Shown one piece after another: positions 3,784 through 4,533 of a DNA stretch of 28,899 nucleotides; the first letter of the stretch is position 1; each line of letters opens with the position of its first letter. The stretch comes from Candidatus Zixiibacteriota bacterium. Its GTDB lineage: Bacteria > Zixibacteria > MSB-5A5 > GN15 > FEB-12. Position numbers and translations under genes: made by a program. The DNA is taken from NCBI GenBank assembly GCA_023700785.1, contig JAMPYH010000001.1:1-28899 (forward strand). The letters run 5' to 3'. The notes under the pieces are model-generated. The model was not told the origin of the DNA and made no database searches. It was given only the letters and a program-made list of their open reading frames with translations.

Positions 3784-4533
3784 ATGAAGACGCGTTTTAT
3801 GGGACTAGCTATGGGCTCGGCGCTGCTCGCGACGTCGGTATTCGCCGCCCCGCGGATGACGATCTCAGAAGCTGAGTTCGATTTCGGGTTTGTACCCCAG
3901 AATTCGTCGATCTCGCACGTGTTCTGGCTGCACTCGAAAGGGGACGACAGCCTTCGTATCATCAGCGTCCAGCCTGGCTGAGGATGCACCAAGGCGCCTC
4001 TTGAGAAAGAGGTGATCGCTGTCGGTGACAGCACCCGGCTTGAGATCATTTTCGATACGAAGAGCTACACCAACGTGGTGAGTAAATCGCCGCGCATCCA
4101 GACCAATGAGGGTCCGCCGGACAAGTTCGTACGGATCAACGCGTCGGTGGTGAATCGGCCCGATTCCACTTACCCGATCGTGATCAAACCGTACAAACTG
4201 GATCTGACCCAGTTCGGCGAAAAGGTCCGGAGCGAGATCAAGTTCACGCTGAACAACGTCTCGCAGACCGATCTGGCCCCGCAACTGATCTCGTCTGCGG
4301 AACAGTTTTTTGAGGTTGTCCTGCCCAAGGTGATCCCGGCGGGCAAGACAGCCGAAGGCGTGTTGAAGCTGAGGAAGAACGCGCTGGACAAGCCGTTTGA
4401 CAAATCGTTCACGCTGCAGTTGAACGACGAGAAGAATAGTCGGTTTACCATACCGGTTAAGCGGCAGATCCGCAGTGGAGCGCAGGTGGTATCATCGCCT
4501 GCCGCGACCACGCCGAACGCTGGGGGCCATTGA
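3784..4533 (+). CDS. Secreted DUF1573-like protein, probable selenoprotein (UGA at 3979-3981 read as Sec; motif PG-U-G-C-T), 249 aa
   Basis: ORF-track pieces 3718..3981 and 4012..4533 are in the same frame, joined by TGA GGA TGC ACC AAG GCG CCT CTT GAG AAA GAG GTG. The joined protein aligns end to end with 3008..3718 (FDFGxVPQNS, xCT, GDS, KPYK, RFTIP). The TGA aligns with Cys in both paralogs and a SECIS-like hairpin follows. Confidence 0.85.
3987..4027 (+). promoter_or_regulatory. Bacterial SECIS-like stem-loop
   Basis: Upper stem CGCCTCTT (3995-4002) pairs with AAGAGGTG (4007-4014), 8 bp with one G-U pair. The GAGA apical loop (4003-4006) starts with G, 21 nt after the UGA. A possible lower stem is CACC (3987-3990)/GGTG (4024-4027). 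Folded by eye. Confidence 0.75.

Follow-up and report, generated by a model that had tools for sequence, protein, structure and literature searches.

In Escherichia coli, SelB recognizes G23 and U24 in the small apical loop of a stem-loop that lies 11 nt past the UGA (PMC8659212). The fdhF SECIS of this bacterium is the upper 17-nt stem-loop (nt 15-31), with loop bases G23/U24 and a bulged U17. In general, SECIS stems measure 6-8 bp and a conserved G of the loop lies about 20 nt downstream (PMC4605307), and most bacterial SECIS loops follow the pattern N1-G-[G|U]-N-N2 (PMC13188914). The bSECIS model (Zhang and Gladyshev 2005, summarized in PMC13188914) sets the apical loop at 3-9 nt and the upper stem at 4-16 bp, with a G in the first two loop positions, a distance of 16-37 nt between UGA and loop, and an MFE of -7.5 kcal/mol or lower. 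Among selenoproteins, a DUF1573 protein with a UGC motif has already been listed (PMC9312934, PMC13188914). This family has been traced to OS_HP2 (Zhang and Gladyshev 2007; PMC1976440), which is absent from the SECIS figure (Figure 5) of the 2007 paper (PMC1976440).

The DUF1573 locus and its UGA codon

We analyzed a 28,899-nt stretch of DNA (hereafter the window) from a Candidatus Zixiibacteriota genome. Three tandem DUF1573 genes are located on the + strand within the window, and the relevant features are as follows.

about 3005-3718, + strand: paralog 1, DUF1573 with a Cys-Asp-Cys motif; internal control without the hairpins
3718, + strand: ATG, alternative start of the DUF1573 Sec gene, overlapping the stop of paralog 1
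3784-4533, + strand: DUF1573 selenoprotein gene (Pfam PF07610, translation with TGA = U)
3979-3981, + strand: in-frame UGA, the Sec codon, aligned with the first Cys of the CxC motif in the paralogs
4675-4989, + strand: paralog 3, short, with a Cys-Gly-Cys motif; internal control without the hairpins

The Sec gene encodes a signal peptide and an N-terminal DUF1573 Ig-like domain (PF07610 score 72.1 bits; gathering cut-off 26.1) that carries the motif PG-U-G-C-T. With TGA read as U, its translation is ...SVQPG-U-G-C-TKAPLEKEVIAVGDSTRLEIIF..., and Sec is residue 88 when numbered from the Met at 3718. The true stop is the TGA at 4531-4533, followed by a terminator-like hairpin. Paralog 3 is a truncated remnant, matching just residues 33-100 of the gene of about 250 aa that relatives have at the same position; a small further piece matches in another frame, and a terminator-like hairpin is found downstream of this paralog (about 4995-5022). 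Neighboring genes encode an ABC-2 transporter pair, two GWxTD-domain proteins, and a MacB/FtsX/HlyD-type exporter. These neighbors are uninformative on the specific role of the U-G-C motif.

Similar to OS_HP2, the protein has a DUF1573 domain and Sec at the first position of a CxC motif (U-G-C); unlike OS_HP2, it has a second, C-terminal domain. Its score against the OS_HP2 model of NCBIfam (NF041425) is 64.4 bits, below the cut-off of 100. The Zixibacterial protein is related to OS_HP2 through the shared domain and is not a member by the NCBI threshold.

The genome is a 70%-complete MAG, in which we found selA, selB (300.8 bits, over the cut-off), tRNA-Sec (65.2 bits; gathering score 47), and a selD gene with an in-frame TGA of its own. 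Both selA and selB occur twice, as overlapping partial copies at the ends of two contigs: G000 C139 contains the C-terminus of selA and a full selB, and G000 C144 contains the N-terminus of selB, a full selA, and tRNA-Sec. This doubling is probably assembly redundancy or strain heterogeneity rather than a real duplication.

Orthologs were searched for in 60 relatives from four families of one order. Nearly every relative has one, with an open frame of about 250-290 codons that contains exactly one TGA. The PG-U-G-C-T motif with TGA at the same codon is present in all 30 loci first fetched, and TGA occupies this codon in 86 distinct orthologous sequences across the order, with three from other orders of the class. 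The full set of Sec genes, the match of the TGA to a Cys codon, and the conservation of the frame before and after it identify the UGA at 3979-3981 as a true selenocysteine codon of a secreted DUF1573 protein. This UGA, in frame and aligned with a Cys of homologs, occurs in a genome that has selA, selB, selC, and selD.

Two hairpins downstream of the UGA

Two hairpins were found downstream of the UGA. In the numbering used below, the U of the UGA is nt 1.

3995-4014, + strand: hairpin H1, stem 3995-4002/4007-4014, loop GAGA 4003-4006
4018-4032, + strand: hairpin H2, stem 4018-4023/4027-4032, triloop GGU 4024-4026 (nt 40-54)

An earlier note on this DNA had described H1 as an 8-bp stem that closes a GAGA loop 21 nt past the UGA, and this is exactly what we found: the gap between UGA and loop (3982-4002) is 21 nt, and the eight pairs (C3995-G4014, G3996-U4013, C3997-G4012, C3998-G4011, U3999-A4010, C4000-G4009, U4001-A4008, and U4002-A4007) include one G.U pair. 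A possible extension (3993-3994/4016-4017) across a bulged A4015 would abut H2, such that H1 covers nt 14/17-36/39, with nt 14-24 pairing with nt 39-29.

Folded alone, H1 has an energy of -11.9 kcal/mol (z = -3.96), and none of 200 shuffles was equally stable. The corresponding values are -8.3 kcal/mol (z -3.29) for H2 and -20.5 kcal/mol (z -3.73) for the tandem of H1 and H2 (3992-4034). The whole 70-nt context is unexceptional (z -1.64); the folding signal resides in the two local hairpins, not in this context. As had also been claimed, with paralog codons that were quoted correctly, paralogs 1 and 3 are unable to form the H1 stem: their equivalent 60-nt regions (3209-3268, z +0.56; 4852-4911, z +0.88) fold no better than shuffles.

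For comparative analysis, we aligned 61 TGA-bearing orthologs from the UGA to +90. This alignment is gapless, a spacing that is also imposed by the protein and is no independent evidence of a fixed RNA geometry. Standard pairs are kept in 77% of the H1 pair cells among these Sec orthologs and in 38% of those among 25 Cys paralogs from the same loci; the earlier proposal that the stem goes with the UGA thus holds at this scale. The energies of the H1 region differ accordingly (-11.0 +/- 2.5 kcal/mol in Sec genes vs. -4.4 +/- 2.5 in Cys genes). The compensatory changes that the note had proposed to look for among TGA-bearing orthologs were found, with changes on both sides at 5 of the 11 H1 pairs. 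The clearest case is nt 18 with nt 35 (alignment columns 27 and 44), where the combinations are UA (28), GU (11), GC (8), and AU (6). Since nt 18 is the synonymous third base of an Ala codon and nt 35 occupies the middle position in a codon, six codons further on, that specifies Val, Glu, or Ala, a silent site tracks a distant amino-acid change.

Taken as one structure, the two hairpins have 85.2% of their cells paired in this alignment, whereas sliding the 3' partners by 1-3 columns left 38-57% paired. The covariation score was 0.167 (0.054-0.085 when slid). None of 500 shuffles reached the observed values, a test that overstates significance because the orthologs are related. RNAalifold predicted H1 with RIBOSUM scoring only; with default scoring, H1 was not predicted, and the output contained only H2 and a weak alternative helix. 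This helix (window 3980-4000) pairs GG at nt 4-5 and GC at nt 8-9 with GC at nt 16-17 and CC at nt 19-20, and is unsupported because it involves only invariant codon positions and has no covariation. It competes with H1, and the invariant positions speak neither for nor against it.

The adjacent H2, which the earlier note overlooked, is GCUGUC-GGU-GACAGC, a 6-bp stem immediately 3' of H1 with no unpaired base between the two. It is encoded by Ala-Val-Gly-Asp-Ser codons, which read GCU GUC GGN GAC AGY in all 61 aligned orthologs, such that 100% of the stem is paired. The sole stem change among these orthologs is C to U at nt 54, which turns a G-C pair into G.U. Due to this invariance there is no covariation, and pairing is supported just by synonymous-site conservation and the one G.U change. 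The third positions of neighboring codons vary freely in the same alignment. Moreover, the third base of the H2 loop varies (U in 52, C in 8, and G in 1), indicating that there has been enough time for silent change. In the larger set, H2 is present in 82 of the 86 distinct Sec sequences, of which 81 have a perfect stem and one lacks only the closing pair; GGN is likewise kept in 82 of 86.

Cys paralogs that encode AVGDS or A-x-GDS use other codons (GCC/GCG, GUG, GAU, and AGU or UCN) and have no stem. Overall, 47% of the H2 pairs are found in Cys paralogs, and the mean H2 energy is -8.9 in Sec genes vs. -2.9 +/- 1.9 in Cys genes. The genome contains the exact H2 15-mer only once, so it is no repeated module. 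Hairpins of this class (at least 6 bp with a G[G/U]N triloop) are expected by chance at about 0.15 per kb, or about 0.5% for a given 33-nt window. One Cys copy with the motif PG-C-G-C-T (L155; G168:C70:18263-18880) adjoins a Sec copy and has kept the H2 stem with a GGA loop, together with part of H1. It has the look of a gene recently converted from Sec to Cys, its SECIS left as a fossil.

These results show that both hairpins exist and are specific to the Sec form of the gene; H1 covaries, H2 is invariant, and the loop type of H2 matches that of the SECIS elements of the clade. The hairpins could be thought to have no role in recoding, being by-products of the encoded peptide or acting in mRNA stability, with the TGA as a true stop or as damage in a pseudogene. 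In favor of this, the peptide sequence (APLEKEV...AVGDS) is conserved in its own right, and a scan of 3700-4300 against Rfam at a permissive threshold found no SECIS or other family (the only match, to a snoRNA with E = 8.2, is a chance one). However, the Cys paralogs with the same AVGDS peptide lack the stem, a silent position in an Ala codon changes in concert with a codon farther downstream, and in about 60 genomes the reading frame continues, open and conserved, before and after a single TGA. Together with the alignment of this TGA to Cys and the presence of the Sec machinery, these observations make an explanation without recoding extremely improbable.

Hairpins of other selenoprotein genes in the clade

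The post-UGA hairpins found in Sec genes of the clade are listed below.

selD, 24 relatives: covarying 6-7 bp stem with triloop GGU or GUU (e.g., GCCAAC-GGU-GUUGGC), loop at nt 24-26
Thioredoxin-like gene (W-U-x-x-C), 17 orthologs: GACAC-GGUC-GUGUU, loop at nt 27-30
HesB-like gene (G-x-G-U-S-G), about 29 orthologs: GGCUC-UGGAU-GAGUC, loop at nt 29-33
DUF1573 U-A-C subfamily, three genomes: GCUCCUUU-GGU-AAAGGAGC, 8 bp, no H2, loop at nt 24-26 (the H1 position)
DUF1573, one other divergent copy (n = 1): CCUUU-GGA-AAAGG, loop at nt 24-26
DUF1573 main family, 82 of 86 sequences: H2, GCUGUC-GGU-GACAGC, loop at nt 46-48

All of the Sec genes examined have in common a short stem and a small loop with GG or GU, in agreement with the N1-G-[G|U]-N-N2 loops, the recognition of G23/U24, and the 6-8 bp stems reported in the literature. 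The first loop G is at nt 46 in H2 and at nt 24-30 in every other family. In the main DUF1573 family, the GG/GU hairpin of the clade type is H2, not H1. The selD hairpin has a strong sequence bias imposed by the protein (GCC...GGC).

Several observations were made on these genes along the way. The thioredoxin-like gene (L157; G000:C304:3595-4500) encodes a protein with the motif W-U-T-W-C and a C-terminal repeat region; its SECIS hairpin is invariant in the 17 orthologs, and several relatives have no in-frame TGA in the gene. The HesB-like gene (L158; G000:C87:8126-8458; motif G-A-G-U-S-G; orthologs L190-L219) has two conserved post-UGA hairpins, and in the first (nt 7-23) the third bases of two Gly codons covary. 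In genomes of family f3, this gene is located no more than a few hundred bases from the DUF1573 Sec gene (e.g., G041:C73, 199475-199798 and 199982-200656). Two further in-frame TGA candidates are a secreted protein (G000:C8, around 2145) with F-C-U-V-P-C and the hairpin GGUCUU-CGUGC-AAGACC, and a protein near a contig end (G000:C94) that reads ...LQLFA-U-QDQ....

For the genome-wide scans, a codon-usage score for read-through TGA gave 1632 candidates and was far too noisy. A stricter six-frame TGA scan gave 22 candidates and missed selD and the DUF1573 gene; it served only as the source of the thioredoxin-like, HesB-like, and C8 candidates. A descriptor scan for stems of at least 6 bp with a G[G/U]N triloop located 18-50 nt past an open-frame TGA is unspecific alone, with 729 such hairpins in the genome and 41 hits, most of them in non-coding frames.

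The earlier note had taken H1, with its loop G, as the recognition element, and had named in advance the conservation of this G among TGA-bearing orthologs as one of the points on which that reading depended. The H1 loop varies among the 61 orthologs (GAAA in 22, GAGA in 8, GAUA in 5, and also ACAA, AAAA, CAAA, CAGA, UCUA, UUAC, and others), and G is first in only 40. What stands of the interpretation is a hairpin that is Sec-specific and selected; what does not is its role, since H1 is probably not the recognition element. The possibility that H1 is the SelB-binding SECIS hairpin, with H2 accessory or unrelated, should nevertheless be weighed. The H1 loop is at the right distance, with G first in the window, an 8-bp stem, and favorable energy. 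Of the 61 Sec orthologs, 42 have an H1 that satisfies the formal bSECIS constraints, compared with 1 of the 25 Cys paralogs, and the recognizable GGU hairpin of the U-A-C subfamily occupies the H1 position. Against this, the loop is unconstrained: it is 12 nt long in some orthologs and fits G[G/U] in 15 of 61. Nor does this possibility account for the freezing of synonymous sites in H2, seen in Sec genes only, or for the likeness of the H2 loop to those of the clade's other SECIS elements. We consider such a role of H1 unlikely.

Both hairpins may also act in recoding in some manner other than as binder and spacer, for example, as two alternative SelB sites, or with a kinetic role of H1 in holding the ribosome or shielding H2 from mispairing. 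Both are Sec-specific, and a further covarying hairpin is found ahead of the GG-loop hairpin in the HesB-like gene, such that accessory helices are perhaps a habit of this lineage. Nonetheless, the H1 loops share no SelB-type motif, and the accessory hairpin of the HesB-like gene is no true analogue because it starts at nt 7 and would be unwound with the UGA in the A site. A mixed role of this kind is, in our judgment, distinctly improbable.

A putative two-part SECIS and its relation to known elements

We hold with moderate confidence that the 54 nt after the UGA contain a two-part SECIS, in which H2 would be the SelB-binding hairpin and H1 a folded spacer. H1 is probably such a structured spacer rather than a recognition element. 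According to this model, H2 would be bound by the winged-helix domains of SelB, and H1 may be coaxially stacked on H2. Folding of H1 would take about 26 nt (nt 14-39) out of the path and place the base of H2 beside nt 13, about 10 nt past the UGA, similar to the start of the E. coli mini-helix (11 nt). This site would be just outside the mRNA entrance of the ribosome, and the GGU loop could thereby be brought as close to the entrance as the loops at nt 24-33 in the other genes of the clade. A spacer H1 and a binding H2 would explain why the H1 helix is selected while its loop is free, why H2 is frozen, and why both are lost in Cys paralogs. One point that speaks against the two-part reading is distance: the H2 loop lies 42 nt past the UGA, beyond the range of 16-37 nt, whereas H1 is at the canonical distance.

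A fuller version, to which we give about even credence, is that a bipartite SECIS occurs across an order of Zixibacteria, with a canonical SelB-binding GGU hairpin past the consensus range that is brought near ribosome-bound SelB by an obligatory covarying spacer. It perhaps arose from a lone ancestral hairpin that occupied the H1 position, the situation still found in the U-A-C subfamily (PG-U-A-C-T; L152-L154, namely, G053:C1:11876-12508, G169:C73, and G212:C1), whose arrangement may be the ancestral one.

Selenoprotein finders and the consensus model assume one stem-loop with an apical loop 16-37 nt past the UGA. In this family, the hairpin that passes the filter has an unconstrained loop, and the hairpin under the strongest selection falls outside the filter. 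For SECIS annotation this is a caution: a hairpin may be the first to fit the model and still not be the element that is recognized. If SelB binds H2, the gene would offer a natural test of how strictly SelB-dependent recoding gauges distance, along the chain or through space, and would show that a folded insert can substitute for a lower stem.

When compared with the bSECIS consensus, both hairpins fit in loop and stem size (4 nt and 8 bp for H1; 3 nt and 6 bp for H2) and in energy. For spacing, H1 is inside the range and H2 is outside. For the loop pattern, C-GGU-G of H2 is an exact fit, and the GAGA of H1 has G first but not G[G|U], with a G that is unconserved. Neither hairpin fits every criterion.

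Compared with fdhF, the DUF1573 element is similarly located in the coding region right after the UGA and carries GGU in a small apical loop above a short stem. The C-GGU-G loop of H2 resembles the GGUC loop of fdhF, and H1 starts about 10-13 nt past the UGA, which is where the fdhF mini-helix starts. The differences are that the GGU loop is at nt 46-48 rather than nt 22-24, that there is no bulged U, and that, between the UGA and the GGU hairpin, a covarying hairpin of its own takes the place of a lower stem.

As for the SECIS elements of the selD, thioredoxin-like, and HesB-like genes in the same clade, these have comparable stems of 6-8 bp and loops of 3-5 nt with GG or GU, and the closing pairs and loop of selD (e.g., C-GGU-G) are identical to those of H2. 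Unlike these elements, only H2 has its loop at nt 46-48, and H2 alone follows a complete hairpin that lies outside the ribosome footprint. Searching the literature for bacterial SECIS elements with two hairpins yielded no relevant report. The selenoprotein family was already described in 2007; a SECIS built of two hairpins, with the canonical one out of range, may be new.
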